Assembly: GCA_035620735.1 (NCBI GenBank)
Contig: DASPGH010000131.1
Location: forward strand, 18,218-82,217
DNA length: 64,000 nucleotides
Origin: Acidimicrobiia bacterium
GTDB lineage: Bacteria > Actinomycetota > Acidimicrobiia > Spongiisociales > ZC4RG35
Direction: 5' to 3'
Shown piece by piece: positions 30,545 to 45,022 of the stretch; position 1 is the stretch's first letter, and each line of letters begins with the position of its first letter. Made by a program: the position numbers and the translations under genes. The notes beneath the pieces were generated by a model. The model was not told the DNA's origin and ran no database searches. It saw only the letters and a list, made by a program, of their open reading frames with translations.

Positions 30545-31423
30545 GTGATCCCAAACACGATCGAAGAGCTGAAACGCTCTCTCGACAGCCAGGACTACTT
30601 CGCTGGTGACGACCTCACCGTCGCCATCCACCTCGCCCTCCAGCTGGGGAGACCCTTGTTTCTCGAGGGAGAAGCCGGCGTCGGCAAGACCGAGGTAGCG
30701 AAGGTCCTCGCCTCTCTCGCCGGAGAGGAGCTCATCAGACTCCAGTGCTACGAAGGCCTCGACGTGAATCACGCGCTGTACGAGTGGGACTACGCACTGC
30801 AGATGATGGAGATCAGGCTGCTCGAGGCGCGTGGTGAAGGGGAGAGAGCAACCGCGAAGGACATCATGAGCCGTGAGTTCCTCATCGCCAGACCGCTACT
30901 CCAGGCGATCGAGGCGTCCCGCGGCGGACGTCGCCCCGTGCTCCTCATCGACGAGTTGGACAGGGCGGATGAAGAGTTCGAGGCGTTCCTCCTCGAGCTT
31001 CTGTCTGACTTCCAGGTCTCGATCCCCGAGATCGGAACCATCAAGGCGGAAAACCCCCCGATCGTCGTGCTGACCTCGAATCGCACGCGGGAGATCCACG
31101 ACGCGCTCAAGAGACGTTGCATCTACCACTGGATCGACTATCCCACCCCCGACCTCGAGGCATCGATCGTGTCCCGAAAGGTGCCGGGGATCGAAGAGGA
31201 TCTCGCTTCCAGTCTGGCCACCGCCATGGCCAAGCTCCGTCAGATGGAGCTGTTCAAACCACCCGGGGTCGCCGAGACGCTCGATTGGGCCGAGTCCCTT
31301 CAACTGCTACACGACGGGGAGCTCACCCCGACGATGGTCGAGCGCACGCTCGGCGTGGTGTTGAAGTACAAAGACGACATCGACACCGTCAGGGAATCCG
31401 GGCTCGAATCGCTCGTTGGGTGA
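30545..31423 (+). CDS. coxD: MoxR-family AAA+ ATPase, CoxD-like
   Basis: Walker A (GEAGVGKTE), Walker B (LLIDELDRAD) and the MoxR architecture. It heads the cox cluster. Confidence 0.85.
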   Translation: MIPNTIEELKRSLDSQDYFAGDDLTVAIHLALQLGRPLFLEGEAGVGKTEVAKVLASLAGEELIRLQCYEGLDVNHALYEWDYALQMMEIRLLEARGEGERATAKDIMSREFLIARPLLQAIEASRGGRRPVLLIDELDRADEEFEAFLLELLSDFQVSIPEIGTIKAENPPIVVLTSNRTREIHDALKRRCIYHWIDYPTPDLEASIVSRKVPGIEEDLASSLATAMAKLRQMELFKPPGVAETLDWAESLQLLHDGELTPTMVERTLGVVLKYKDDIDTVRESGLESLVG

Positions 31424-32533
31424 ATGAGAGGGGCTCTCACCGACCTGACCGGTTTCGCCACGGCTCTCCGCCGGCGGGGACTGACGGTCACACCGGACCA
31501 GGTCTCCGACATGGCGCGGGCGCTAACCCTGGTAGATCCGTCCAGACGCTCACAGGTCCGGGCCTCGCTGAGGTCTCTGGCAATCACAGATCCGGACCAG
31601 CGGGGACCCTTCGACGAGGAGTTCGCCCGTTTCTTCGAAGGTCTGCTCGACCCGATGGGTCGGCCCGGGGAGGAGCGAGACTCCACCAGTGGGGCTGCGC
31701 TCAAGCCAGTGGCACGATCACCCGAAGGGCATTCTGAGGAGGAGACCAGCTCTCAGGGAGGGACATCGGCCACGAAGCGGGTTGCCACCAGGGATTTCGC
31801 CGACCTGAGCGATGACGAACTGGCCGAGGCGCGCCGGATGGTCATGGCGATGATGTGGCAACCGAGCGATGTGAGGACGAGGAGGTGGTTCCCCTCACGC
31901 ACCGGCTCCCGACCCGACCTGCGGCGCAGCCTTCGCAGCACGACACGTCCCGAAGGCGATCTCATTCCCATTGTCAGGAGCGCCCGCAGAAAGCGACAAC
32001 GTCCCCTGATCGTCATCGCCGACATCTCGGGCTCGATGGAGAAGTACGCCGACGTGTTCCTGGTGTTCGCCCACGCCGCCCAGAGGCGGATCGATGAGGT
32101 GGAGGTGTTCACCTTCTCCACCGAGCTCACCCGGATAACCGACGACCTGAATCGGCGCAGTGCGCAAGTTGCCCTGGATCGGGTGGCCTCCACGGTTCAT
32201 GACTGGTCCGGGGGAACCAAGATCGGTGATGCATTGGCTACCTGGAATCGTGAATGGAGCCGCCGTCTCACCAGAGGGGGTCCCATCGCCCTCATCCTCT
32301 CCGACGGCTGGGACTGTGGGGACCCTTCAGTTCTCGGCCAGGAGATGGCGAGGTTGGCGCGGACGGTCCATCGAGTGATCTGGCTCAACCCCCTAGCCGC
32401 CCATGCCGGCTATCGACCCGCCACGCGCGGGATGCAGGCCGTCCTCCCCCACATCGACCACCTCCTCCCGGCGGCGAGTGTGGTGGATCTACGCGGGGTG
32501 GTTCGACTTCTCGACTCGATGCAAACGCGGTGA
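31424..32533 (+). CDS. coxE: VWA-domain protein, CoxE-like
   Basis: C-terminal VWA with a MIDAS motif (DISGSM ... SDGWD) and the CoxE-type N-terminus. It abuts coxD. Confidence 0.85.
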   Translation: MRGALTDLTGFATALRRRGLTVTPDQVSDMARALTLVDPSRRSQVRASLRSLAITDPDQRGPFDEEFARFFEGLLDPMGRPGEERDSTSGAALKPVARSPEGHSEEETSSQGGTSATKRVATRDFADLSDDELAEARRMVMAMMWQPSDVRTRRWFPSRTGSRPDLRRSLRSTTRPEGDLIPIVRSARRKRQRPLIVIADISGSMEKYADVFLVFAHAAQRRIDEVEVFTFSTELTRITDDLNRRSAQVALDRVASTVHDWSGGTKIGDALATWNREWSRRLTRGGPIALILSDGWDCGDPSVLGQEMARLARTVHRVIWLNPLAAHAGYRPATRGMQAVLPHIDHLLPAASVVDLRGVVRLLDSMQTR

Positions 32534-32760
32534 GCGGACTGGCGTTCAGTGCCACTGCACAGCGTTCTCGAGACGATCACTGCCCGTAGCTCACACTCTG
32601 CTGTGGCCGCTCCCGCCGTCGCGGTCACGGGCCGGTGTGTATGGTGACCAGCGACACTGTTCAGACGACAGGGTCGAGCGTGAGGAGGTTCCCTGGTGGC
32701 TGTGACCGCTGTTCTTCTCTGGGTCTTCGATGAGGTGCGTCATGTCACCGAGGGTCGGAG

Positions 32761-33024
32761 ATGATCGCCGAGGGCATGGGCTCGATGCGGGGCAACCCCA
32801 AGATCTACGAGCTGATCGAGAACTCGCCAAAAGAGGGAGCAAGCCCAACGATTTGGGCCTGGCCACAGGTGATCGACTACTTCAAAGTGGCCGGCCAGCC
32901 CGTCCAGGGTCCCTGGCCGCCGCATCAAGAGCCCAGACCCGACCCCAGCGATGAGTCGTTGCCGGTCGCAGTGCCCGATCCTCATTCGGCGCGAGAACCG
33001 GGTGACGACGCCAACCCGTACTGA
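32761..33024 (+). CDS. Possible small protein (about 80 aa) between coxE and coxM
   Basis: GC3-rich ORF with weak RBS context and no recognisable family. It could be a non-coding spacer instead. Confidence 0.25.
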   Translation: MIAEGMGSMRGNPKIYELIENSPKEGASPTIWAWPQVIDYFKVAGQPVQGPWPPHQEPRPDPSDESLPVAVPDPHSAREPGDDANPY

Positions 33025-33034
33025 GGAGGCAGCC

Positions 33035-33910
33035 ATGTATCCCGCACGTCTCAGATACGAAGCTCCCCGATCTCTCGAAGAGGCCAGCTCGCTCCTCGCC
33101 GACGGCGGTGGAGAGGCCAAGATCCTCGCCGGGGGCCAAAGCCTCGTCCCGATGCTCAAGCTTCGGTTCGCCTCGCCCGAGATGCTGGTCGACATCAATG
33201 AGCTCCCCGGTCTCGGCTACCACGAGCGTGATGCCGACGGGACGATCCGGGTCGGAGCCTTGTGTCGGCACGCCGACCTGGAGAGGTCGACACTCTTGGC
33301 TCGGCACCAGCCGACGATGATGGCGGTCGCTCCTCTGGTCGCCGATCCCGTGGTCAGGAATCGTGGCACATTGGTGGGATCTCTCTGCCATGCCGACCCA
33401 CAGGGCGACTGGGCGTCGGTGATGATGGCGTTGAATGCATCGGTGGTCGTTCACAGCAATCGGGGAAAGCGGACGATCGCAATGAGAGACCTGGTGAGTG
33501 GTCCCTTTCAGAACACGCTCGCGATCGACGAGGTGGCAGTAGAGGCGGTGGTCCCCGCCCCACAGGGAGTGGCCGAGGGTGGTTACATCAAACTGGAGCG
33601 GCGTGTCGGCGACTTCGCCACCGTCGGCGTCGCCGTCGCAGTCGACCGCGTTGGGGGCAACGTCGTCGCAGCCGGGATCGGGCTCACGGGCGTGGGTGGC
33701 TCGACCATCGCGGCGGATGAGGCCGCCGCGATCCTCACTGGCGGGCCGCTCTCCGCGGAGGCGATCGGTGAGGCGGCCGAGTTGGCCGCTGCCGCGGCCC
33801 ATCCCCACAGCGATCATCGGGGAAGTGCGGAATACAAGAGGCATCTGGTCCGGGTGTTCACCAGACGTCTGCTCACCGGTCTCATGACATCTGGAGAGGA
33901 GGCTGCCTGA
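33035..33910 (+). CDS. coxM: CO dehydrogenase medium (FAD-binding) subunit CoxM
   Basis: FAD-binding PCMH-type domain (ILAGGQSLVPMLKLR ... RNRGTLVGSL). GAGGAGG lies 5 nt before the ATG. Confidence 0.9.
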   Translation: MYPARLRYEAPRSLEEASSLLADGGGEAKILAGGQSLVPMLKLRFASPEMLVDINELPGLGYHERDADGTIRVGALCRHADLERSTLLARHQPTMMAVAPLVADPVVRNRGTLVGSLCHADPQGDWASVMMALNASVVVHSNRGKRTIAMRDLVSGPFQNTLAIDEVAVEAVVPAPQGVAEGGYIKLERRVGDFATVGVAVAVDRVGGNVVAAGIGLTGVGGSTIAADEAAAILTGGPLSAEAIGEAAELAAAAAHPHSDHRGSAEYKRHLVRVFTRRLLTGLMTSGEEAA

Positions 33911-34483
33911 ATGACGAGCCTGTTCGAAGAGATCACTCCAACGCCATCATCTCTCGACGAAGTCCCTGTGCGCAAGGTCACGATCACTGTCAACGGACAG
34001 CAGCGATCGGCGATGGTCGAGCCCCGTCTTCTGCTCGTTCACCTGCTCCGACAGGGATTCGAGCTCACCGGCACCCACATCGGCTGTGACACGACCAACT
34101 GTGGGGCGTGCACGGTTCTGTTCGACGGCAAGCCGATCAAGAGCTGCACGATGTTGGCCGTTCAGGCCGACGGGCACGAGGTGATGACGGTCGAGGGTCT
34201 CGCCGGCCCCAGCGAGCTGCACGCCATCCAGGAGGGTTTCAAAGAGGAGCACGGCCTCCAGTGCGGTTTCTGCACACCCGGGATGATGATGACCTCCAAG
34301 GCACTTCTCGACGAGAATTCGAACCCGACCGAGGACGAGATCCGCTGGGCCTTGGGCGGGAACCTGTGCCGGTGCACCGGCTACCAGAACATCGTGAAAG
34401 CCGTGATGTGGGCGGCGGCGAAGCTCGACGGCGCCGCCGAGGCCTCGGAAGACGAAGACGACGATGCGGAGGTGACGGCGTGA
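33911..34483 (+). CDS. coxS: CO dehydrogenase small (2x[2Fe-2S]) subunit CoxS
   Basis: Two iron-sulfur motifs ([11 protein letters not shown] and CGFCTPG ... CRCTGY). Confidence 0.95.
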
Positions 34484-36864
34484 CGGCCCTGGACGAGAGA
34501 AAGATCGGTGGTCTGGGCGCGAGTCGTCGCCGGGTCGAGGACAACCGGTTCATCAGGGGCAAGGGCGGTTATCTCGACGACATCACATTGCCCGGGATGC
34601 TGCACATGGAGATACTTCGCAGCCCCGTGGCCCACGCCAAGATCAACTCGATCGACATATCCAAGGCCATGGGCATGCCCGGAGTCAGGCTGGTTCTCAC
34701 CGGTGAGATGATGGCGGCGCGAAACCTGGCCTGGATGCCAACGCTCTCTTACGACACCCAGGCCGTTCTCGCCACCGACAAGGTTCGATTCCAGGGCCAG
34801 GAGGTGGCGTGTGTGATCGCCGATGACCCCTATACCGCCAAGGATGCCTGTCAAGCCATCGTCGTCGACTACGAGCCGTTGCCCGTCATCATCAACCCGG
34901 AACAGGCTCTCGCCGAGGGCGCCTCGTTGATCCGCGACGACAAGGTGAACCAGCCCGACAACGTGATCTACGACTGGGAGGTGGGCGACAAGGAAGGGAC
35001 CGACCGCGCCTTCGCCGAAGCGGATCTCGTCTCGGAGATCGAACTGCACTACCCCCGCTCTCACCCTTCGCCGATCGAGACCTGCGGCTCCATCGCCGAC
35101 TTCAACCGGGCCACCGAGAAGCTGACCGTCTACATGACGACTCAGGCCCCACACATCATCCGAGCCGCCGTGGCCCTCGTGGCCGAGTTGCCCGAGCAGA
35201 TGATCCGGGTGATATCACCGGACATCGGAGGAGGCTTCGGGAACAAGGTGCCCGTCTATCCGGGTTATGTGGTGTCGATCCTCGCCTCGATCCTCCTCGA
35301 ACGCCCCGTGAAGTGGATCGAAGACCGCACCGGGAACCTGATCTCGACAGGCTTCGCCCGAGACATCTACCTGAAGGGCCAGCTGGCCCTGCGTAGCGAC
35401 GGGAAGATCCTCGGGGTCCGCATGAACACCCTCGCCGACCACGGCGCATTCTTCTCAGACGCCCAACCTTCGAAGTTCAAACTCGGTCTGATCCATTCGG
35501 CGTTCGCCTGCTACGACATTCCCAATGCCCATCTGGTGGCAAAGGGGGTCTACACGAACAAAGCCCCCGGCGGAGTCGCCTATCGCTGCTCGTTCCGGGT
35601 GACGGAGGCGATGTTCTTCCAGGAGCGCATGGTCCAAGCCGCCGCCGACGACCTGGGGATGGACCAAGCCGAGTTCCGGCGGAAGAACCTGGTTCGTGAT
35701 GATGACTTCCCCCACCGCACCCCATTCGGGTTTCTCACCGACTCTGGCCAATACGCCAAGTGCCTCGACGTGGGTCTCGAGGCCATCGGCTATCAAGACT
35801 TCCTGAAAGAGAAGGAGAACGCTGCGAAACGGGGGCGCCGTCTCGGGATCGGGATCTCGGTGATGACCGAGCCTCTCGGCGCAGGGAACAGCCGTGAGTA
35901 CGACATCCTGGGCATAAAGATGTTCGACTCCGCCGAGTTGCGGGTGCACATGACCGGCAAGGCGCTGCTTCGAACCGGGGCACGTTCTCAAGGCCAGGGA
36001 CATGAGACCACATGGGCACAGATCGTCTCCCACGAGCTGGGCATCCCCGCAGAGGACGTGATCGTGGAGGAGGGAGACACCGACACCGCACCCTTCGGGA
36101 TGGGCACATACGCCTCTCGCTCAACGCCGGTCGCCGGCGCCGCGGTCGCCATGGTGTCACGCAAGATAAGGGCCAAGGCCCGCAAACTCGCCGCCCACCT
36201 CCTCGAGATCTCCGAGGAGGACGTCGAATGGGAGCTGGGCCGCTTCTATGTGAGGAGCCAGCCCGACCGTGGGGTGACCATCCAGGAGGCAGCCGCCGCG
36301 GCGTACTCCAACATGCCGGATGGGATGGAGCCGGGGCTGGAGAACACGGCCTATTACGACCCCCCCAACCTCACCTGGCCGTTTGCCTGCTACATCGCCA
36401 CCGTAGAGGTCGACCCCGACACGGGTGTCTGGGACGTGCTACGGGTCGTCGCTGTCGACGACTGTGGGGTGCGGATCAACCCGATGATCGTCGAAGGACA
36501 GATCATGGGGGGTCTCACCGAGGCATACGCCATGGCGAACATGCAGTTCATAACCTTCGACGAGGACGGGAACTGCATAGGCTCCAACTTCACCGATTAC
36601 TTGCTGCCCACGGCGTGGGAGACACCCGGATTCGAGCTCCACGAGGTGGTGACACCCTGCCCCCATCATCCGATCGGGGCCAAGGGCATCGGGGAGTGCG
36701 CCGCCGTCGGCGGGCCTGCCGCCTTCGTCAACGCGGTGATGGATGCCCTGAAAGACACCGGAGTCCGCAACATAGACATGCCCGTCTTCCCCGATCGGGT
36801 CCATCAGGCGATCCAGACAGGCGATGATGTGAGCGGGGCTCCACCGGTGAGAGTGGGAGTATGA
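34480..36864 (+). CDS. coxL: Form I CO dehydrogenase large (Mo-Cu MCD) subunit CoxL
   Basis: GTG start overlaps the coxS stop as GTGA. The form I active-site loop VAYRCSFR is present near 35575-35598. The track ORF (34108..) carries a spurious N-terminal extension. Confidence 0.9.
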
Positions 36865-37817
36865 ATCAATCCCCCGGCGACGGATGGCAGATTCTGGAGA
36901 AGGCGAGCCAGCTCGCCGCACAAGGAGTGCAGCTCGCCCTCGCCACAGTGGTGTGGCGCCAGGCCCCCTCTTCGGGGCATCAGGGGGCCCGGGCAATCAT
37001 CACCGCCGACGGGGAGATTCACGGCTGGATCGGCGGTGCTTGCGCCGAACCGGTTGTGATCCGGGAAGGCCAGCGGGTCATCGCCGAAGGCCACCCTCAG
37101 TTGATCCTGCTCGGTGAGCCGGGCGATTTCGGCCATGTGCCGGAAGGGGTGGTGTCGGTTCCGATGGCATGTCAGTCCGAGGGGGCTCTCGAGCTCTATA
37201 TCGAGCCGGTGCTGTCCACCCCTCGAATGCTGGTCGTGGGTCGGTCCCCCATGGCTACCACCCTCGTCGAGCTGGCCACCGTTCTCGGTTGGCGGGCCGA
37301 TCTGATCGATTCGTCTGATTTCAGGGCCGATCTGGTGGATGGGAATTCGATTGTCATCGTGGCCACACAGGGTCACGACGACGAGGACACCCTGGAAACG
37401 GCGGTGGGCGCGAGCCCCGCCTTCATCGGGCTCGTCGCCTCACAGAGAAGGGGCGAGTCGGTCCTGGGATACCTCGCCGACCGTGGAGTGCCCGAGGAGA
37501 AGCTGCAGCGGGTCAGAGTGCCGGTAGGTATCGACCTTGGTCACACCTCCCACACCGAGATAGCGGTCGCCGTCCTCGCCGAGCTCGTGGCTCTCAAGGC
37601 AAAGGGCGAGTTTGGCCCGACCCCACCCGAGAGAACGGCGGCTCCCGCGCCCGAGACCGCGATCGATCTCGTCTGCGGGATGACTGTCACCGCTGACGAG
37701 ACCGGCCGCCCACTCGAGTACGAGGGGACCACTTACTACTTCTGCGCCCCGGGGTGCCGGGCCGCTTTCGAAAAGGAACCCGAGAAGTTCATCAAGGAGA
37801 CCGTCCGTGCTGATTGA
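36861..37817 (+). CDS. coxF: XdhC/CoxF-family maturation protein fused to a C-terminal YHS/TRASH-like metal-binding domain
   Basis: XdhC N- and C-domains (AIITADGEIHGWIGGACAE ... MLVVGRSPMA) followed by a Cys-rich tail (CGMTVTADETGRPLEYEGTTYYFCAPGCRAAFEKEPEKF). It overlaps the coxL stop as ATGA. Confidence 0.8.
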   Translation: MNQSPGDGWQILEKASQLAAQGVQLALATVVWRQAPSSGHQGARAIITADGEIHGWIGGACAEPVVIREGQRVIAEGHPQLILLGEPGDFGHVPEGVVSVPMACQSEGALELYIEPVLSTPRMLVVGRSPMATTLVELATVLGWRADLIDSSDFRADLVDGNSIVIVATQGHDDEDTLETAVGASPAFIGLVASQRRGESVLGYLADRGVPEEKLQRVRVPVGIDLGHTSHTEIAVAVLAELVALKAKGEFGPTPPERTAAPAPETAIDLVCGMTVTADETGRPLEYEGTTYYFCAPGCRAAFEKEPEKFIKETVRAD

Positions 37818-38391
37818 GAGCTCGATTCACGTACCCCACCCCATCGAGGACGTCTGGAAATTCTGCCAGGACGTGCCACAGGTGGCGGCCTGCCTCCCGG
37901 GGGCCGATCTCAACGAGGAGCTCGGGCCCGACCACTATGCGGGCACAGTGGCCATCAACATGGGCCCGGTGCGACTCAAGTTCGCCGGTGAGGCCAAGGT
38001 GTTGGAGCGGGATGAGGAGAACAAGACCATCGTCATCGATGCCGTGGGCATGGACCAGACCGGCGGCGATCGTGCCAGTCTCGACCTGACCGTGAAGCTG
38101 GCTCCACACGGACGAGGGACAAATCTCGACGTCACCCAGGAGATCCATCTCTCGGGAGCGGCGGCACAGTTCGGGAGAGGCATGATCGGTGACGTCACCC
38201 AGGTGCTGATGATCGACTTCGGGAAGAACATGCAGACCCGGCTCGACGCCTTCGAGCGCGGGATTGCAGCCCACGAGATTCAGGGGAGCCAGAGGGCGAG
38301 TGGTCTGGCCATTGGCCTCAGGGCAGCTTGGATGGCCCTGAAGAGGGTGGCAAGGCGCTTCTTCCTCCCCTACGAGCCAAACCGAGTGTGA
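37807..38391 (+). CDS. coxG: CO dehydrogenase subunit G (SRPBCC family) CoxG
   Basis: 194 aa with CoxG-family similarity (SIHVPHPIEDVWKFCQDVPQVAACLPGA). Confidence 0.85.
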   Translation: MLIESSIHVPHPIEDVWKFCQDVPQVAACLPGADLNEELGPDHYAGTVAINMGPVRLKFAGEAKVLERDEENKTIVIDAVGMDQTGGDRASLDLTVKLAPHGRGTNLDVTQEIHLSGAAAQFGRGMIGDVTQVLMIDFGKNMQTRLDAFERGIAAHEIQGSQRASGLAIGLRAAWMALKRVARRFFLPYEPNRV

Positions 38392-38398
38392 GGAGAGA

Positions 38399-38656
38399 TT
38401 GATGGTCTGGTGGTGGATAGGAAACGCAGTGCTCCTCCTGGTGATCGTGCCGGTGCTCGTGGCGCTGCTCAACAGGGTGTTGGCCGCCCTGGAGCGAATC
38501 AGAAAAGCGTCCGACGAGATACTCGCCGGTGGCGTTCAGCTGATCGGCGAGGTCGACAGAGTCCCCGAGCTCCTGGAAACGACCGACAGGACCATCGCGG
38601 ATGTCTCGAAGGGCGCGGTCAGATATGCCGGCTCCGTGGCGAAGTTGTTGGGTTAG
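38399..38656 (+). CDS. Small single-pass membrane protein, paralog 1 of 5
   Basis: 85 aa with an N-terminal TM helix (WWIGNAVLLLVIVPVLVALL) and a helical tail. First of a tandem paralog array. Confidence 0.5.
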   Translation: MMVWWWIGNAVLLLVIVPVLVALLNRVLAALERIRKASDEILAGGVQLIGEVDRVPELLETTDRTIADVSKGAVRYAGSVAKLLG

Positions 38657-38666
38657 GAGGACGCAA

Positions 38667-38894
38667 ATGCCTGCAGCAGCAGTAGTCACTCTGGTCCTGG
38701 CGGCGTTGATCATCGCCGCCGCGGCGTTGGGGTTGATTCGGGTCATTGGCCACCTCATGGCCACCCTCGACACCCTCAGGGCCCTCACCGGCGGAGTCGA
38801 GGTGGTGGCCGCCAAGACGAGCACGGTCCCGGCAGTGGTCTCGTCGGTCAACGCCAACCTGAAGCCAGTCAGCGATTTCGCCGAGTCGATCTAG
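38667..38894 (+). CDS. Small single-pass membrane protein, paralog 2 of 5
   Basis: 75 aa. AGGAGG lies 6 nt before the ATG. Has a TM helix (VVTLVLAALIIAAAALGLI) and a helical tail. Confidence 0.5.
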   Translation: MPAAAVVTLVLAALIIAAAALGLIRVIGHLMATLDTLRALTGGVEVVAAKTSTVPAVVSSVNANLKPVSDFAESI

Positions 38895-38901
38895 GAGAAG
38901 T

Positions 38902-39165
38902 GTGATGAGCGAACTCTTCGATGGAAACACGAGTTGGCTGGTCGGCTATGTGATCGGTCTGGTCATCGTCCTGGTGGTCGTGGCGCTGGTCGTCCCCATT
39001 CTCGTTCTCGCTCGCAAGATCGGGAATGAGGCGCAGTTGATCGACGACAGTCTGAAGAAGTCGGTGCAAAACACGGCGGCTCTCAACGAGCTGAACGCGA
39101 CAAACACCATGGCGATAAACGTCATCGAGGGCCTCAAGCGCGGCAGACAGCGTCTGGGAGGTTGA
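38902..39165 (+). CDS. Small single-pass membrane protein, paralog 3 of 5
   Basis: 87 aa with a TM helix (WLVGYVIGLVIVLVVVALVVPILVL) and a polar helical tail rich in N, T and Q. Confidence 0.5.
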   Translation: MMSELFDGNTSWLVGYVIGLVIVLVVVALVVPILVLARKIGNEAQLIDDSLKKSVQNTAALNELNATNTMAINVIEGLKRGRQRLGG

Positions 39166-39166
39166 A

Positions 39167-39454
39167 ATGACATTTGCCCTCACAGAGTCGCAGGAGACTC
39201 TCTGGCAGATAGCCAACTGGGCCGGTCTGGCGGTGGTCGTGGCCGTGGCCGCACTCCTCACCGTCCTCGTGCTCTTCGTCCGAACCATCGACCGTCGTGT
39301 CGTCGCGATCAAGGCGACACTCACAGAAGCCGAGGCCAACACCGCGGACGCCGAGTTGCTCGATACCACTTCGGCCGGGGTCGACATGGTTCTCGCCGAA
39401 GGTCTCGAGCATCACCTGTTCCTGGGCAGAGTCCTCGGGAAGGTGCGCTCATGA
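39167..39454 (+). CDS. Small single-pass membrane protein, paralog 4 of 5
   Basis: 95 aa with a TM helix (WAGLAVVVAVAALLTVLVLFV) and a helical tail. Confidence 0.5.
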   Translation: MTFALTESQETLWQIANWAGLAVVVAVAALLTVLVLFVRTIDRRVVAIKATLTEAEANTADAELLDTTSAGVDMVLAEGLEHHLFLGRVLGKVRS

Positions 39455-39810
39455 ACGGCCTGATCGTCTTCACGGTGATCGACGTCGTGCTCCTCATCGC
39501 CGGGCTGGCCATCTACCTCTGGATCGTCGGAGGCCAGCTCACCCGCGTCGCCACCAATCTGGAGGAGTGCAATGACCTGGTTCGCCAGATCAATGCCAAC
39601 GCAGAGACGATCGAAGGCAACCTGGAGCATGTGAATCGGACGGGCGGCGTGATCGCAGGCGCTCTCCCTCTTCTCTACGACATGGCCGAAGGCATCGTGA
39701 CGGGAGCCACCTACGACGCCGACAACGTCCCGGAGAGAGGCCCGGCGGCACCCGCCTCGGGTACCCGGCGCTCCAGGTTGCTCGACGCGGTCGGCTACAA
39801 GCCGGAGTAG
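39451..39810 (+). CDS. Small single-pass membrane protein, paralog 5 of 5
   Basis: 119 aa. Overlaps paralog 4 as ATGA. Has a TM helix (LIVFTVIDVVLLIAGLAIYLWIV) and a helical tail. Confidence 0.5.
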   Translation: MNGLIVFTVIDVVLLIAGLAIYLWIVGGQLTRVATNLEECNDLVRQINANAETIEGNLEHVNRTGGVIAGALPLLYDMAEGIVTGATYDADNVPERGPAAPASGTRRSRLLDAVGYKPE

Positions 39811-39816
39811 AGCGGG

Positions 39817-40266
39817 CTACACCCTTCTCTTCGAGGGGTTGCGGTCCGTGGTCAGGGGGCCGGTGGTCCCAGGGGTCTCATACTCGCCAATCCAGTGGTC
39901 TTTCCAGGACTGGTCGTACTGCTCGGGATTGCAGCCCGGCTCGTAGATCGCGATCAGCTCCCGCATGATCTGCTCCCGATGTGACGCCAGCGCTCCCGGA
40001 GCTTCCAGGTAGCAGATGTGAAGTTTGAACCTGTCGCCCTCGACGCGCTTGAGCCAACAACCGGCCGCAGGGTGATTGAACGGAAAGTGCTCCCGGGACA
40101 GGTCATCGGAATGACCCACGTACAGAACACCATATCGCTCCGGGTTGGTGTCCGGCTTCGGCCTGTACAGGATGGCATAGACGGCGGGACGACTCGGTGG
40201 CGTGAAGCCGGCGAGCAGCCGAGGCCCCTCGAAGGCATACCCGGCGAGAGTGCCGAGACGGATCAA
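39817..40266 (-). CDS. Hypothetical 149-aa protein with a GIY-YIG-like nuclease motif
   Basis: VYAILY, then 11 residues, then YVGHSDDLSREHF, then about 35 residues, then REQIMRELIAIYEPGCN. This resembles the GIY ... YIG ... R ... H ... E ... N pattern of UvrC and I-TevI. It is the last gene of the operon and overlaps the preceding gene by 4 nt. Confidence 0.45.
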   Translation of the reverse strand: MIRLGTLAGYAFEGPRLLAGFTPPSRPAVYAILYRPKPDTNPERYGVLYVGHSDDLSREHFPFNHPAAGCWLKRVEGDRFKLHICYLEAPGALASHREQIMRELIAIYEPGCNPEQYDQSWKDHWIGEYETPGTTGPLTTDRNPSKRRV

Positions 40267-40592
40267 TCTTCTCCCTCTCCTCGATCCCGACTGCGGCCCT
40301 CCGGGATCTGGTTATACCAGTCCAAGCTCTCCTCATGACCTTCGGTCTCGACACTCATCACCGGCCAATCGGGAAGACCTGCTGCAGCAGCCGCGGATGT
40401 GAACAAGGCCATGGCACGCTCCACCGCCAATTCGCTCGTCCCGGCCTCGACCACGATCTGGGCCCCATACGAGTTGGTCCCCATTCCCGTGGCCACTCCC
40501 TCTTGGGGGGCGACGGCATCGGCCAGCTCGACCACTTCCTCCAGGCGAATCTCACGATCACCCTCGGCCTGGAGGGCCACGATCCACCTCAT
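40263..40592 (-). CDS. Hypothetical 109-aa acidic protein
   Basis: GC3-rich and translationally coupled (4-nt overlaps) to the VWA gene upstream and the GIY-YIG-like gene downstream. I recognise no family. Confidence 0.5.
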   Translation of the reverse strand: MRWIVALQAEGDREIRLEEVVELADAVAPQEGVATGMGTNSYGAQIVVEAGTSELAVERAMALFTSAAAAAGLPDWPVMSVETEGHEESLDWYNQIPEGRSRDRGEGED

Positions 40593-41752
40593 CGCAGCGC
40601 TGGGAGTTGGTGAGCGAGCTCTTCGAGACCGGCCAGATCGCGGCCCGACATGAAGAGATCGATGTGAGGCTTGGCAACCATCATGCCCAACGTGGCGGGC
40701 CGGTAGCTGCCCTCATCACCGATGTGGGGGTTTACCCATACCACCCTGTGAGAGAGGAGAGACAGCCGCTCCATGGCCTTCGCGAGGACGGCCGGATCGC
40801 CCCGGTCGAGCCCATCGGAGCAAATGACGACGATGGCGCCGCGGCTCATCCCACGTCGACCCCATTGCTTCACGAAAGTCGCGATGGAATCGCCTATCCG
40901 TGTGCCTCCCTCCCAGTCGAAGACCATCTTGGCGGCGCGGTCGAGCGCCTCGTCGGGACGGCGGCGCTCCAGGGACGGAGTGATCCGGGTGAGACGGGTC
41001 CCGAAGCAGAAGACCTCGACTCTGGCGCTGGCCCGTCGTGCCGAGTAGGCGAACTGGAGAAGGTTGCGCGAGTACTCCGCCATCGAGCCCGAGACGTCGA
41101 GGATCAGCACCAACGGGCGCGACTTTCTCTTTCGCGCACGCCAGAACAACTGGGATGGCTCCCCGTGCTGGCGCATCGTGGCGCGCACGGTGCGACGAAG
41201 ATCAGGACGGCTCTTCGAACGGGAAGGCCGGGTCCGACGGGTGCGACGCCGCGGCGGGATGAGCCTCATCCGATTCATGATCCTTCGAAGCGCCGCCAGC
41301 TCCTCCTCGGTGCATGCCGGGAAAGACTTGTCACGCCAGATCTCGATGTCCGATGCGTTCAAGCCGAGCCTGGCTTCCTCCTCGTCATGGCCTGGTTTAC
41401 CCGGTTCGGTCGCCGGTATCTCGATAACGGCATCGTTCTCGATCTGGGAGCGTTTCAGCTCCCGACGCAACGACTCGGGGATGGCAGGGTCGTAGCCGAG
41501 GAAGAATCGGCGAAATACCCTGTCATATATCGGGATCTGATCGTGCTTGGTGATGAGCGTGGAGCGTCCGGCCCAGTAGAGGTCGAGAAGATCGCCAGGG
41601 TTGAGAGTGGCCATGGCCGCGCAGTAGATGAGCAACTCCCCCGAGCCCACCGGCATGCCCTCGGCGCGAAGCTCCCTACCGAAGCTCACGATCATCTCGA
41701 CGAATGGGCCTCCCTGTGCCAGCTCCGCGTCGATCGGCGATCCATCAGCCAT
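40589..41752 (-). CDS. VWA-domain protein, CoxE-like (second copy)
   Basis: MIDAS motif (DVSGSM ... SDGLD) and a CoxE-type N-terminus. The start is probably an ATG at 41752, which would overlap the MoxR stop as ATGGCTGA. The track ORF extends to 41860. Confidence 0.8.
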   Translation of the reverse strand: MADGSPIDAELAQGGPFVEMIVSFGRELRAEGMPVGSGELLIYCAAMATLNPGDLLDLYWAGRSTLITKHDQIPIYDRVFRRFFLGYDPAIPESLRRELKRSQIENDAVIEIPATEPGKPGHDEEEARLGLNASDIEIWRDKSFPACTEEELAALRRIMNRMRLIPPRRRTRRTRPSRSKSRPDLRRTVRATMRQHGEPSQLFWRARKRKSRPLVLILDVSGSMAEYSRNLLQFAYSARRASARVEVFCFGTRLTRITPSLERRRPDEALDRAAKMVFDWEGGTRIGDSIATFVKQWGRRGMSRGAIVVICSDGLDRGDPAVLAKAMERLSLLSHRVVWVNPHIGDEGSYRPATLGMMVAKPHIDLFMSGRDLAGLEELAHQLPALR

Positions 41753-42524
41753 CGGGCACGAGCTCTTCGAGGTGTTCGAGCACGGCTTCGAGATCGTCCC
41801 GCTCCTTGACCACGGCACCCAAGGTGTCCCGAACGGTCTCGCCGTCCAGTTCCGGCTCACCCAGGACCTCGAGGGTCGCCACCCAGTCCAGGGTCTCTGC
41901 GACTCCAGGGGGCTTCGCCAGATCCATCCCGCGAAGACGGTTGACGGCTGCTACCACCTTGCGGGCGATGGTCTCGGTGGCTCCCGGGTTGCGGGCGAGC
42001 ACGATGTCGACCTCACGCATCGGGTCCGGATAGGGCACCCAGTGGTAGAGACACCGGCGCTTGAGTGCATCGTGCAGCTCGCGGGTCCGGTTGGAGGTGA
42101 GCACCACTATGGGTGGCGCGTTTGCGGAGATGGTCCCGATCTCGGGGATGGTTATCTGAAAGTCCGACAGCAGCTCCAGGAGGAAAGCCTCGAACTCGTC
42201 GTCGGCTCGATCGATCTCATCGATCAACAAGACTGCGCTGTCTCCGGCCCGAACCGCGGCGAGCAGCGGGCGCTCCAGCAAGAACTTGGGACCGAAGAGT
42301 TGGTCGACTTGGTCATCGTCGGCGAGTTGCTGCTCCGAGAGCGCCCGAATCTGCAGCATCTGCCTGGCATAGTCCCACTCGTAGAGCGCCTGGTTGGTGT
42401 CGATTCCCTCATAGCACTGCAGACGGATCAGCTGTTTGCCGAACACCTCGGCCAGGGCTTTGGCCAACTCCGTCTTGCCCACACCCACTTCACCCTCGAG
42501 GAGGAGGGGTCGGCCCAGGCTCAT
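41745..42524 (-). CDS. MoxR-family AAA+ ATPase, CoxD-like (second copy)
   Basis: Walker A (GEVGVGKTE) and Walker B (LLIDEIDRAD). The first canonical start is at 42524. Another 39 in-frame codons upstream (to 42641), homologous to the coxD N-terminus, contain no ATG/GTG/TTG and end at a TAG. Confidence 0.8.
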   Translation of the reverse strand: MSLGRPLLLEGEVGVGKTELAKALAEVFGKQLIRLQCYEGIDTNQALYEWDYARQMLQIRALSEQQLADDDQVDQLFGPKFLLERPLLAAVRAGDSAVLLIDEIDRADDEFEAFLLELLSDFQITIPEIGTISANAPPIVVLTSNRTRELHDALKRRCLYHWVPYPDPMREVDIVLARNPGATETIARKVVAAVNRLRGMDLAKPPGVAETLDWVATLEVLGEPELDGETVRDTLGAVVKERDDLEAVLEHLEELVPDG

Positions 42525-42641
42525 GGCGACGAAGACGGCAGTGGCAAGGCCGCGATCTGCCAGGTAGTCGCCACCGCGGAGCAGTTGAGTCAGTTCGGCG
42601 ACATCCGAAGGCGCCGCCGGGGAACCGGGTGCGGGGCTCAG

Positions 42642-42893
42642 CTACCCACCCTCGCCGAGAACGAGGTCACGAATCGTCCCGGCGGACTTGTCGAGCTTCC
42701 CCTCGCGCGCCAATTGGGCCCGCCAGGCAGCGCCGATGTCGGTGCCGGGCTCGGCGTAACCGTCGAAGCTCACACCCTTCATGTTGCGGCATGGTTTGGT
42801 TGGACTGCAATCCTCGTCGAGCTCGTAGTGGTCATGATTGACCAGCCACACCGATTGCAGCACGTCGGCCGTGGTCTCGTCTCGGGCAGTCAT
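42642..42893 (-). CDS. Hypothetical 83-aa protein
   Basis: Strong RBS (AGGAGGAG 6 nt before the ATG) and GC3-rich usage. Its TAG stop is in frame with the MoxR-like gene. I recognise no family. Confidence 0.55.
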   Translation of the reverse strand: MTARDETTADVLQSVWLVNHDHYELDEDCSPTKPCRNMKGVSFDGYAEPGTDIGAAWRAQLAREGKLDKSAGTIRDLVLGEGG

Positions 42894-42969
42894 CGCGAGC
42901 TCCTCCTGGGAATCAGCTGAAGACCACCAAGTCTAGTGACAGCCGACCCCTTGCCACCACGAACTCGAC

Positions 42970-43854
42970 TCACCTGGCGGCCGCGATCGCCTCGGCCACG
43001 ATCGCCACCGCGACCTCTCCCGGACTCGATGCGCCAATGTCTAGACCGGCCGGCCCGTGGACCCGCCTCAGATCGGAGACTCCTCGGTAGGCCAACCAGT
43101 CGGCACGGTCGGACTGCATCTTTCGACTTCCGACAGACCCGATGTATCCGCAGCTGCTTTCCAGCGCCGCCGTCAAGCCCGCACCGGCCAGCTCGAGGTC
43201 GTGGGCAGCGATCACCACCTTGTCATGACCGGAGAGTGGCGCGATCAACCCGGTGGCCATGTCCCTCTCTGCGGTGATGTGGGCCTGCCATCCCACCAGA
43301 GGCGCCAGCTCGGCGAGAGCCTCCGCAATCGGGCCTCCCCCCACGATGACCATCTGGGGCACGGCAACGAATATGGAGACCACCCTGTCCTCGGTGATGG
43401 TGGAGCCCGCAGGTTGACCGGAAAACGCGGCCTGAACATCGGCATCGGCTCCCGTGATCGTCATCCGTGAATAGACGCTGACCTCGCTCACCCGATCGTC
43501 TTCCAGAGCGAGCACCAAACAGAGTCGCTCCCGGGACGCGGCCAAGGGCCATAGATCTGCGGGCAACGTGTCGGCGGGCGCAAGGATGCATCGAGCCGTT
43601 CCCGTGGAGGGCAGGTCGGCGATCAGGGCGTCGACCTGAGTTATCTCGACATCGATGAGCCTCCCTGAACTGAGCCGTCCAGCCTCCTCGGCCAGCTTCC
43701 CGTCGAGACTGCCCCTGAGAAGCGATCCCGCCTTCCCGCCACCAGGGGTGAAGGCCACCGCGTCCGACCAGTCCCTCACCTCGAGCCCGTCGACGGCGAT
43801 CAACCAGGCCACGTCGGCGCGGGTTCCGGCTTGCAGACATGCAGCCACTGTCAT
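42970..43854 (-). CDS. XdhC/CoxI-family molybdoenzyme maturation protein
   Basis: XdhC N-domain and Rossmann C-domain ([17 protein letters not shown] ... SVGSRKM). The track ORF extends to 44010. Confidence 0.8.
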
Positions 43855-43929
43855 TGCTATGCCATACACGGCGAGGACTCTACGGCCGGCCCGCGACACC
43901 GGCCGGGCCCAACTACCGTTCAGAGCGAG

Positions 43930-44238
43930 ATGAGAAATCAGCTCGCATTGCGCAACAAGTGGAAAGAAGAGGGCAAGAAGGTCGCCGTGGCGACCGTCAT
44001 CAAGGTGCATGGAAGCGCACCCCGCCCCGAGGGCTCCAAATTCCTCGTCTCATCGACGGGGGACATGGAAGGCTCTGTCAGCGGAGGGTGTGTCGAGAAC
44101 GACGTCTATCTCCACGCCCAGGAGGTGATCGAGTCGGGTAAGCCGAAAAAGGTGACGTACGGCATCGCCGACGAGGACGCCTTCGAGGTGGGGATGTCGT
44201 GTGGGGGCACCATCGACGTCTTCATCGAGCCGTGGTAG
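43930..44238 (+). CDS. Stand-alone XdhC N-terminal-domain protein (102 aa)
   Basis: Matches the XdhC_CoxI N-domain only ([39 protein letters not shown]). Confidence 0.6.
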
Positions 44239-44248
44239 CCCAAATCCC

Positions 44249-45022
44249 GTGACCGACATCAACCAGGCGATCGAGTCTCTCCTCGATGCGGAGTTGTTTG
44301 GCTCCGTGGTCACGTTGGTCGACGGACCCAACGTGGGCGAAAAGGCGGTGGTCGACTCCGAGGGGACCGTGCTCGCCGGTTCGCTACCCGGAGACATCTC
44401 ATCAGACGTCGTCGAGGACGCTCTGACTCTCATGCACCACGAGCAGCACAGGACGCTCGAGTATGGCGACCACTCCGTGTTCATCGAGACACTGGCACCA
44501 CCACCCGACCTGATCATCTTCGGGGCAGTCCACATCGGCCAGGCATTGACGTCGTTCGGAACCCAGATGGGTTATCGAGTCACCGTGGTCGACTCCAGGA
44601 AGCCATTCGTGACCGAGGAGCGGTTTCCCACGGCCTACAGGCTGCTCGTCGGCTGGCCCCGGGACCTGATGGACCAGCTCACTTTCGACCGGAGGACCTG
44701 GGTGGTCGTCCTCTCACACGACCCGCGTCACGAGACACCACCCTTGGAAGCTGCGCTCAAGGCCGACACCCGGTACATCGGGGCAATGGGCAGCCGTCGC
44801 ACACACAACTTGAGAACCGAGCGTCTCCAGAGCCTCGGCTTCGGTGACGACGACATCGCCCGCATCCACTCCCCCGTCGGCCTCGACATCGGTGCGGAGA
44901 CCCCTCAGGAGGTGGCGGTGTCGATTCTGGCCGAGATGACACTCGTGCGGTATGGAGCCGGTAGCGGGGTCTCGTTACGCGGTGTCGACGGCCGCGTCCA
45001 CAAACAGCGGGGCGACCGGTAA
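44249..45022 (+). CDS. XdhC/CoxI-family maturation protein
   Basis: N-domain (VVTLVDGPNVGEKAVVDSEG) plus a Rossmann C-domain (IIFGAVHIGQAL ... AMGSRRTHN). GTG start at 44249 or ATG at 44201. Confidence 0.8.
   Translation: MTDINQAIESLLDAELFGSVVTLVDGPNVGEKAVVDSEGTVLAGSLPGDISSDVVEDALTLMHHEQHRTLEYGDHSVFIETLAPPPDLIIFGAVHIGQALTSFGTQMGYRVTVVDSRKPFVTEERFPTAYRLLVGWPRDLMDQLTFDRRTWVVVLSHDPRHETPPLEAALKADTRYIGAMGSRRTHNLRTERLQSLGFGDDDIARIHSPVGLDIGAETPQEVAVSILAEMTLVRYGAGSGVSLRGVDGRVHKQRGDR

Follow-up and report, generated by a model that had tools for sequence, protein, structure and literature searches.

In Oligotropha, the [MoO3] site of carbon monoxide dehydrogenase (CODH) receives first sulfur and then copper in a stepwise process that needs CoxD, CoxE and CoxF, a requirement that has been established for this organism only (PMC3471820). 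CoxD, an ATPase chaperone, is believed to unfold apo-CODH in part, CoxE has been proposed to bind apo-CODH through its VWA/MIDAS domain, and the sulfur transferase of the pathway is still unidentified (PMC3471820). In actinobacteria, the cox-linked MoxR and VWA proteins of M. smegmatis co-immunoprecipitate (PMC12657314). Here we compare these systems with a minus-strand operon of six genes, named XdhC2, S83, MoxR2, VWA2, A109 and G149 (Table 1), which lies beside a form I CODH (cox) cluster in a 64,000-nucleotide stretch, hereafter the window, of contig DASPGH010000131.1 from an Acidimicrobiia bacterium (assembly GCA_035620735.1). According to our analysis, the last five genes, S83-MoxR2-VWA2-A109-G149, probably constitute the actinobacterial coxD/coxE maturation module for the [CuSMoO2] site of form I CODH, a reading to which we give a probability of roughly 70%.

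The neighborhood of the block was analyzed in two sets of loci. The first was seeded with G149 and comprised 82 genome loci, of which 69 had at least 4 kb of upstream sequence, 65 had at least 7 kb downstream and 48 were fully flanked. The second was seeded with A109, independently of G149, and comprised 80 metagenome loci, 19 of them with at least 7.5 kb downstream. Among the 69 genome loci with sufficient upstream sequence, VWA2 and MoxR2 were present in all, S83 in 68 and A109 in 66, and the gene order was invariably S83-MoxR2-VWA2-A109-G149. A CoxL at least 75% identical to that of the window was found in 63 of the 65 loci with sufficient downstream sequence, usually around 3 kb away, behind the genes of five small membrane proteins (sm5 to sm1), coxG and an XdhC-YHS fusion. 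The metagenome set gave a similar picture, with G149 directly downstream of A109 in 68/68 loci and CoxL in 17/19. Taking both sets together, the block was located at most 10 kb from form I coxMSL (AYRCSFR motif) in 80 of the 84 sufficiently flanked loci. Two metagenome loci, L129 and L153, carry the five-gene block with no cox gene within 8 kb and no sm1-sm5 or coxG nearby; the neighbors are sugar epimerases and glycosyltransferases in L129, and a LysR regulator, PaaA and a CYTH protein in L153. Since all five genes are intact in these two loci, away from the cox genes, the block can be regarded as a unit. The five genes move together, with cox genes and not with defence islands.

The original prediction had offered two alternatives for this operon. 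The first, a defence or conflict module, fails by the measure that the prediction itself had set, with the block embedded in cox clusters in these 63 genome and 17 metagenome loci. The second, a metallo-cofactor maturation module with novel accessory subunits, is essentially borne out by the cox synteny and by the homology of MoxR2 and VWA2 to CoxD and CoxE. The three small proteins, S83, A109 and G149, lack annotation but are strongly conserved: across orders they show 45-83% identity, compared to 78-92% for CoxL. When one genome per species was scanned, G149 relatives appeared in at least 544 genomes, whose record titles are almost all from Actinomycetota (Acidimicrobiia, Mycobacteriales, Micromonosporaceae, Streptosporangiaceae, Amycolatopsis, Nocardioides, Angustibacter, Frankiaceae and Trebonia), together with a few metagenome-assembled genomes titled Acidobacteriota. 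Public names for the relatives of S83, A109 and G149 are all hypothetical, save for two stray "MutS" labels on A109 relatives.

The window harbors two MoxR/VWA pairs, the one in the operon and a second one on the plus strand (MoxR1/VWA1), and both were compared with the characterized cox cluster of Afipia (Oligotropha) carboxidovorans pHCG3. MoxR2 showed 57% identity to CoxD (285 bits) and MoxR1 52% (258 bits), while VWA2 and VWA1 were both 32% identical to CoxE, with 146 and 149 bits, respectively. MoxR2 matches PF07728 (AAA_5) and PF00004 (AAA), with a Walker A GEVGVGKT and a Walker B LLIDEID, and VWA2 matches PF05762 (VWA_CoxE) with an E value of 1.7e-55 and has an intact MIDAS, DVSGS...T...D. 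XdhC-family partners of the CoxF/CoxI type are also present, namely XdhC2 (PF13478) and the XdhC-YHS fusion. The nearest NCBIfam models for MoxR2 and VWA2 are MadB and MadC, and both score far below the cut-offs. MoxR1/VWA1 were found in only 9 of the 48 fully flanked loci, all of them from close Acidimicrobiia relatives. Together with a split XdhC, this pair resembles a generic MoxR-VWA-XdhC module, which in the window is split to both sides of the cox region. MoxR matches in Nonomuraea and Embleya were discarded as generic MoxR-VWA-XdhC(N)-XdhC(C) modules like MoxR1/VWA1; the 12 kb fetched on their flanks contained no homologue of form I coxL. Because MoxR2/VWA2 are kept across Actinomycetota and MoxR2 is closer to CoxD, whereas MoxR1/VWA1 have a restricted distribution and look like the generic module, the former are, as judged from these comparisons, the primary cox-linked CoxD/CoxE module and the latter a lineage-restricted extra. 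The operon had been described earlier as a duplicate of coxD/coxE. There are indeed two MoxR/VWA pairs in the window, but that of the operon is the conserved one and not the duplicate.

Like the CoxD-CoxE-CoxF system of pHCG3, the window combines a MoxR AAA+ protein, a VWA_CoxE protein with a MIDAS, XdhC partners and linkage to form I coxMSL. Unlike it, the window pair sits in a separate convergent operon, whereas the Oligotropha pair is found downstream of coxL; it is flanked by S83, A109 and G149, which pHCG3 lacks; and the CoxF-like protein has a YHS/TRASH domain. MSMEG_0748 (MoxR) and MSMEG_0751 (VWA) from M. smegmatis, corresponding to Rv0370c and Rv0368c in M. tuberculosis, are another actinobacterial cox-linked pair, whose two proteins interact physically (PMC12657314); in the published maps the pair is co-directional with coxMSL and has no S83, A109 or G149. 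In M. tuberculosis, a PezAT-like toxin-antitoxin (TA) pair adjoins Rv0368c (PMC6362051).

By homology and synteny, MoxR2 and VWA2 would perform the job of CoxD and CoxE. Following what is described for Oligotropha and M. smegmatis, a MoxR hexamer and the VWA protein would form an ATP-driven chaperone opening apo-CoxL for the insertion of sulfur and then Cu(I), with the XdhC-type proteins, one of them here bearing a YHS/TRASH domain, holding cofactor or metal. The weakest step in the proposal is that S83, A109 and G149 would be clade-specific, stoichiometric accessory subunits. We propose this because their translation appears to be coupled to that of CoxD/CoxE, they are inherited with the cox cluster and they lack the hallmarks of nucleic-acid enzymes. 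The specific roles that follow are hypotheses. G149 could be a non-nucleolytic scaffold or adaptor that docks to VWA2/MoxR2 or apo-CoxL through its cleft, N-terminal strand and C-terminal tail. A109 could provide the MIDAS site of the VWA protein with carboxylates, and C35 of S83 might bear a persulfide or Cu(I). A more specific version, in which G149 would be an exapted non-nucleolytic GIY-YIG protein and an obligate subunit of the CoxD-CoxE chaperone that, along with A109 and S83, recognizes apo-CoxL or hands over the sulfido sulfur or Cu(I), is put forward tentatively, at somewhat less than even odds.

Several points weigh against a maturation role. Adjacency speaks for a functional linkage to CODH, not for maturation as such. 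Oligotropha matures its CODH without these genes, and we found no homologue of S83, A109 or G149 in the fetched pHCG3 cox stretch; the published cluster maps of M. tuberculosis and M. smegmatis lack them too (PMC12657314). Since both Oligotropha and the published mycobacterial clusters do without them, S83, A109 and G149 are not universally required. The register of the catalytic residues of G149, described below, rests on an hhalign match of 49-59% probability, though motif spacing and fold agree with it, and the invariant His, Arg, Glu and Asp residues in the putative G149 cleft may leave room for an altered catalytic activity.

One could also argue that the small proteins act on the mature enzyme, either docking CODH/CoxG to sm1-sm5 or stabilizing or regulating CODH in starvation, while MoxR/VWA remodels the complex. 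Such a role would suit the position of the block, always next to that end of the cox operon which carries coxG and sm1-5, as well as the association of Oligotropha CoxD with the membrane (PMC3471820) and the part played by CoxG in quinone and membrane coupling (PMC12202499). We nevertheless consider it unlikely: the small proteins are translationally coupled to CoxD/CoxE, whose role is established in active-site maturation (PMC3471820), the two loci with the block alone have no sm1-5 or coxG nearby, and the sequences of S83, A109 and G149 contain no membrane segment.

To characterize the last protein of the block, we relied on structure prediction and profile searches. In an AlphaFold2 model of G149 built with 29 homologues, residues 13-113 are confidently predicted, with block values of the predicted local distance difference test (pLDDT) of 82-94, and the protein is disordered from residue 117 on. 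Independently, a Foldseek search returned GIY-YIG entries for all of the top 16 matches, with probabilities of 0.97-1.0 and target-normalized TM-scores of 0.57-0.64 for UvrC. The predicted structure has the elements of the GIY-YIG alpha/beta fold, with helices on the flanks of a three-stranded sheet to which the GIY and YIG strands belong. G149 itself gave no Pfam match at E <= 0.1, which leaves the suggested assignment to PF01541 without a direct hit, and none in NCBIfam or PADLOC. Weak PF01541 matches were obtained in 10 of 41 aligned sequences, mostly distant relatives, with a best E value of 0.0039. Aligning the G149 family profile to the N-domain of E. coli UvrC with hhalign gave an E value of about 1e-4 and a probability of 49-59%. 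Against PDB sequences, the same profile retrieved only spurious protein A repeats, which were discarded. Hence the GIY-YIG fold foreseen for the 149-aa protein was confirmed by two fold-search methods and a weak profile alignment to UvrC. The motifs that had been quoted for it are present as well, with a spacer of 14 residues between VYAILY and YVGH in place of the 11 first counted.

G149 shares with the UvrC N-domain, I-TevI, T4 EndoII and R.Eco29kI a GIY-like strand, a YVG strand and the pattern ..LI..Y.P.(C/Y)N with its Asn. Because the pattern E..LI..Y.P.(C/Y)N is common to G149 and UvrC, the register of their alignment is supported, and it places the Tyr of the GIY motif at Y30, the Tyr of the YIG motif at Y49, the catalytic Arg at E59, the UvrC active-site Tyr at F63, the metal-binding Glu at M101 and the structural Asn at N113. 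These positions were counted in 203 cox-linked members of the G149 family and in a comparison set of 40 distant relatives. Position 59, the site of the catalytic Arg around 10 residues past the YIG Tyr, is Glu in 181 of the 203 members and Arg in none. Position 101, the site of the metal-binding Glu 12 residues before the Asn, is mostly Ala, Thr, Val or Met, rarely Ser, Arg, Cys or Lys, and never Glu or Asp (0/203). The GIY Tyr at position 30, the general base, is Tyr in 145 members, Phe in 57 and Trp in one, and the YIG Tyr at position 49 is Tyr in 181, Phe in 19 and His in 3. Position 63, aligned to the active-site Tyr of UvrC, is Phe in 197/203, and N113, aligned to the Asn of the UvrC ...PRYN motif, is kept in 202/203. 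Among the distant relatives, the catalytic Arg is kept in 26/40 and the Glu in 25/40. According to these results, the view of the 149-aa protein as a nuclease effector is not supported, as the canonical catalytic Arg and Glu are absent from 203/203 members.

The cox-linked clade has fixed other residues. D55, H65, R74, H96, R97 and E103 are fully or nearly invariant, and position 98 is Glu in 191/203 members. The N-terminal strand is conserved (IRLG.LAGY.FEGPR), and so is a predicted-disordered, acidic C-terminal tail (WIGEY..TTGPLTT) that follows an electrically neutral core. Compared with GIY-YIG nucleases, then, G149 mostly has Glu in place of the Arg and Ala, Thr, Val or Met in place of the metal-binding Glu, often has Phe for the first Tyr, shows a longer hairpin of 14 residues between the motifs, an extra N-terminal strand and a disordered but conserved C-terminal tail, and is found in a metalloenzyme maturation operon. 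We read G149 as having a remodeled cleft under strong selection, and the conservation pattern suggests neither a decaying pseudogene nor a canonical nuclease.

Such conservation could also be expected if G149 were still catalytically active, as a nuclease or RNase whose active site has migrated (e.g., to E98, R97, H96 and R74), working in a TA-like pair with A109 or in the processing of cox transcripts. The residues H96, R97 and E98 lie one helical turn from the canonical Glu, and D55, H65, R74, H96, R97 and E103 are near-invariant; a small acidic protein, A109, precedes the nuclease-fold protein with a 4-nt overlap; and the operons converge with 6 nt between their stop codons. TA pairs, however, are sporadic and mobile, whereas A109/G149 are vertically inherited with cox and always follow CoxD/CoxE. 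In addition, the GIY Tyr is Phe in 57/203 members, the position of the UvrC active-site Tyr is Phe in 197/203, the core is neutral and the tail acidic. We therefore regard an active G149 as improbable. For A109 and G149 as a type II TA system in particular, the arrangement fits superficially, and this reading was rejected on the cox-bound vertical distribution and the loss of nuclease residues.

A profile search of 1.8 billion representative proteins recovered distant relatives of G149 of about 110 aa, with 28-43% identity. These form a stand-alone, unannotated GIY-YIG family (P0187, P0402, P0420, P0410 and others) with the consensus G.YAI...Y.GES.NLS.RGF...H..CW...R...E..LI..Y.P.CN. In sequence, this family is the one closest to G149, with F12, H65, C70, W71, R97, P110, C112 and N113 in common; unlike G149, its members have mostly kept the Arg and Glu and have no C-terminal tail. 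Integrase, terminase/portal or insertion sequence (IS) genes were found nearby in the three contexts read among the loci of these relatives (L084-L089), which were never accompanied by MoxR, VWA or cox genes. This family likely includes the ancestors of G149, as far as the sequences can tell. A different kind of match, proteins of 190-320 aa that seemed to be A109-G149 fusions with a Rosetta-stone look, was rejected among the representative matches: these are frameshifted calls with out-of-frame Arg/Pro-rich stretches. Many public gene calls (P0127, P0135, P0148, P0182 and similar ones) are frameshifted A109/G149 chimeras of this kind that mimic domain fusions.

The fold of G149 bears on the defence reading as well. 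MoxR-VWA ternary conflict systems follow a three-component logic, with a MoxR ATPase, a VWA protein and an additional protein. The operon might be such an anti-phage system derived from CoxD/CoxE paralogues, with G149 as the nuclease effector, and in formal terms its architecture agrees, with a MoxR, a VWA and a GIY-YIG-fold protein in one coupled operon; the distant relatives near integrase, terminase/portal or IS elements point the same way. Nevertheless, the synteny between the block and form I cox is strict across several actinobacterial orders, and a tblastn search for G149 gave no match in 72,556 plasmid records (pHCG3 included) or in 50,697 phage records. PADLOC found nothing for VWA2, A109, G149, S83 or XdhC2, and only weak generic AAA matches for MoxR2. 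The outer flanks are of a housekeeping type, namely ffh, an MgtC-family gene and a large LuxR-type ATPase regulator, with nothing like a defence island or a mobile element among them. The canonical catalytic Arg and Glu of the would-be effector are missing in 203/203 members, VWA2 belongs to the CoxE family and MoxR2 is the closest CoxD homologue of the window. Unlike the ternary conflict systems, then, the block has no defence-model match, no mobility and no canonical effector site, and it couples a CoxE-family VWA to a metabolic enzyme. In our view, it is very improbable that the operon is a defence system.

For the two other small proteins of the module, similarity searches gave little. A109, an acidic ferredoxin-like protein, consists of a core of about 86 aa, ferredoxin-like with the order beta-alpha-beta-beta-alpha-beta, and a disordered acidic tail; it has no Pfam, NCBIfam or PADLOC match, and its profile found only noise among PDB sequences. 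S83 gave no match in Pfam, NCBIfam, PADLOC or PDB sequences and has no relative with a solved structure. Little or no variation is seen at its residues W16, C35, F43, D52, W57, R58, G65 and K66, with W16, C35, W57, R58, G65 and K66 invariant, and a second Cys, C29, is frequent (52/72).

All six minus-strand open reading frames (ORFs) that had been claimed were recovered at the same positions (Table 1). Since homologues of G149 and A109 form 1076 and 425 protein clusters, respectively, and the S83 ORF is kept in 72 of 82 related loci, all six are, by these measures of conservation, real genes. The frames of MoxR2 and VWA2 overlap by 8 nt (ATGGCTGA), those of VWA2 and A109 by 4 nt (ATGA), and those of A109 and G149 by 4 nt (TTGA), the latter overlap being preceded by GGAGAGGGAG. 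The overlaps of 8, 4 and 4 nt at these three junctions suit translational coupling. The original prediction of genes joined by 4-8 nt overlaps is correct for 3 of the 5 junctions, but not for XdhC2/S83, which are separated by a 76-nt gap, nor for S83/MoxR2, where a TAG is followed by CTG. Here, the conserved N-terminus of MoxR2 opens with CTG AGC, in frame and directly after the TAG stop of S83, and no ATG, GTG or TTG is available ahead of Walker A, the first ATG (42524) being at Walker A itself. The TAG-CTG-AGC junction is shared with the closest relative (L037, around 7634), and more distant relatives have a 20-50 nt spacer between S83 and MoxR2 and a GTG-AGC or an ATG start. This junction (window 42636-42647, minus strand) suggests a CTG start, termination-reinitiation or stop-codon read-through. 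XdhC2, the first gene of the operon in the present lineage, contains only the XdhC Rossmann domain (PF13478 XdhC_C, E value 2.1e-24), is weakly similar to both CoxI and CoxF of Oligotropha, and lies upstream of S83 in 41 of the 69 loci with at least 4 kb upstream. No riboswitch or other RNA family was detected by an Rfam scan of 29-49 kb, and a promoter and terminator scan gave nothing above chance.

Table 1. Position of the operon genes and neighboring features in the window.
Feature	Position	Strand	Remarks
MoxR1	30545-31423	plus	second MoxR of the window
VWA1	31424-32533	plus	second VWA of the window
coxM	32951-33910	plus	Pfam; presumed client enzyme
coxS	33911-34483	plus	Pfam; presumed client enzyme
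coxL	~34480-36864	plus	Pfam; form I AYRCSFR motif
XdhC-YHS/TRASH fusion, CoxF-like	36861-37817	plus	30% identity (105 bits) to Oligotropha CoxF
coxG	37807-38391	plus	PF06240
sm1-sm5, five small single-pass membrane proteins	38399-39810	plus	
G149 (149-aa protein)	39817-40266	minus	TTG start; GIY-YIG fold (predicted)
A109 (109-aa protein)	40263-40592	minus	very acidic, isoelectric point (pI) 4.15
VWA2 (VWA_CoxE, CoxE equivalent)	40589-41752	minus	PF05762
MoxR2 (MoxR AAA+, CoxD equivalent)	41745-42641	minus	PF07728, PF00004
S83 (83-aa ORF)	42642-42893	minus	acidic, pI 4.7, one invariant Cys (C35)
XdhC2 (XdhC-like)	42970-43854	minus	ORF open up to 44010, start uncertain
XdhC N-domain gene (split XdhC)	43831-44238	plus	divergent from XdhC2
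XdhC C-domain gene (split XdhC)	44201-45022	plus	divergent from XdhC2
LuxR-type regulator, 859 aa	45788-48367	plus	AAA_16 + LuxR/GerE, LAL/MalT type

The adjoining CODH cluster is form I and convergent with the operon, as had been claimed: its CoxL contains AYRCSFR, and the stop codons at the sm5 end of the cox operon and of G149 are separated by only 6 nt. The proteins sm1 to sm5, of about 75-119 aa, have a single membrane helix each, at the N-terminus. They follow coxG, and their order is kept across almost all of the related actinobacterial cox clusters. These proteins gave no informative Pfam match, with a single sub-threshold chance match for sm2, and may form a membrane anchor for CODH/CoxG. 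The CoxF-like XdhC ends in a YHS/TRASH metal-binding domain (PF04945, E value 9e-13), a fusion present in most related loci, and could plausibly be a copper-handling module for the Mo-Cu site. Between VWA1 and coxM, around 417 nt (32534-32950) contain no convincing ORF, and neither an Rfam family, including the molybdenum cofactor riboswitch, nor a sigma-70-like promoter was found near them. In the split XdhC, the genes for the N-domain and the Rossmann domain are in different frames and overlap by 38 nt. The large LuxR-type protein is a possible regulator of the cox genes.

In the library that could be searched, we found no paper tying GIY-YIG to CO dehydrogenase or to MoxR/VWA. The CoxD/CoxE maturation module is known, and with its three putative accessory genes, one of them for an exapted GIY-YIG domain, the module seen here is a variant that has not been described before. 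It may surprise those who work on CODH or on the GIY-YIG fold, though it is not a new category of system. Should the proposed role of G149 be true, it would be the first one for the GIY-YIG fold in metallocentre assembly, and the three proteins would be among the factors needed for making active Mo-Cu CODH heterologously. CODH has been purified at native expression levels because its complex maturation limits production (PMC12202499), and how aerobic CODH acquires the sulfur and copper of its [CuSMoO2] site is only partly understood. The operon seems to have recruited a nuclease fold for a task other than that of a nuclease, and calls for caution before every operon with MoxR, VWA and a nuclease fold is labeled as defence. 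S83, A109 and G149 are concrete candidates for the missing maturation steps, in a group of carriers that includes abundant Acidimicrobiia of soil and water.

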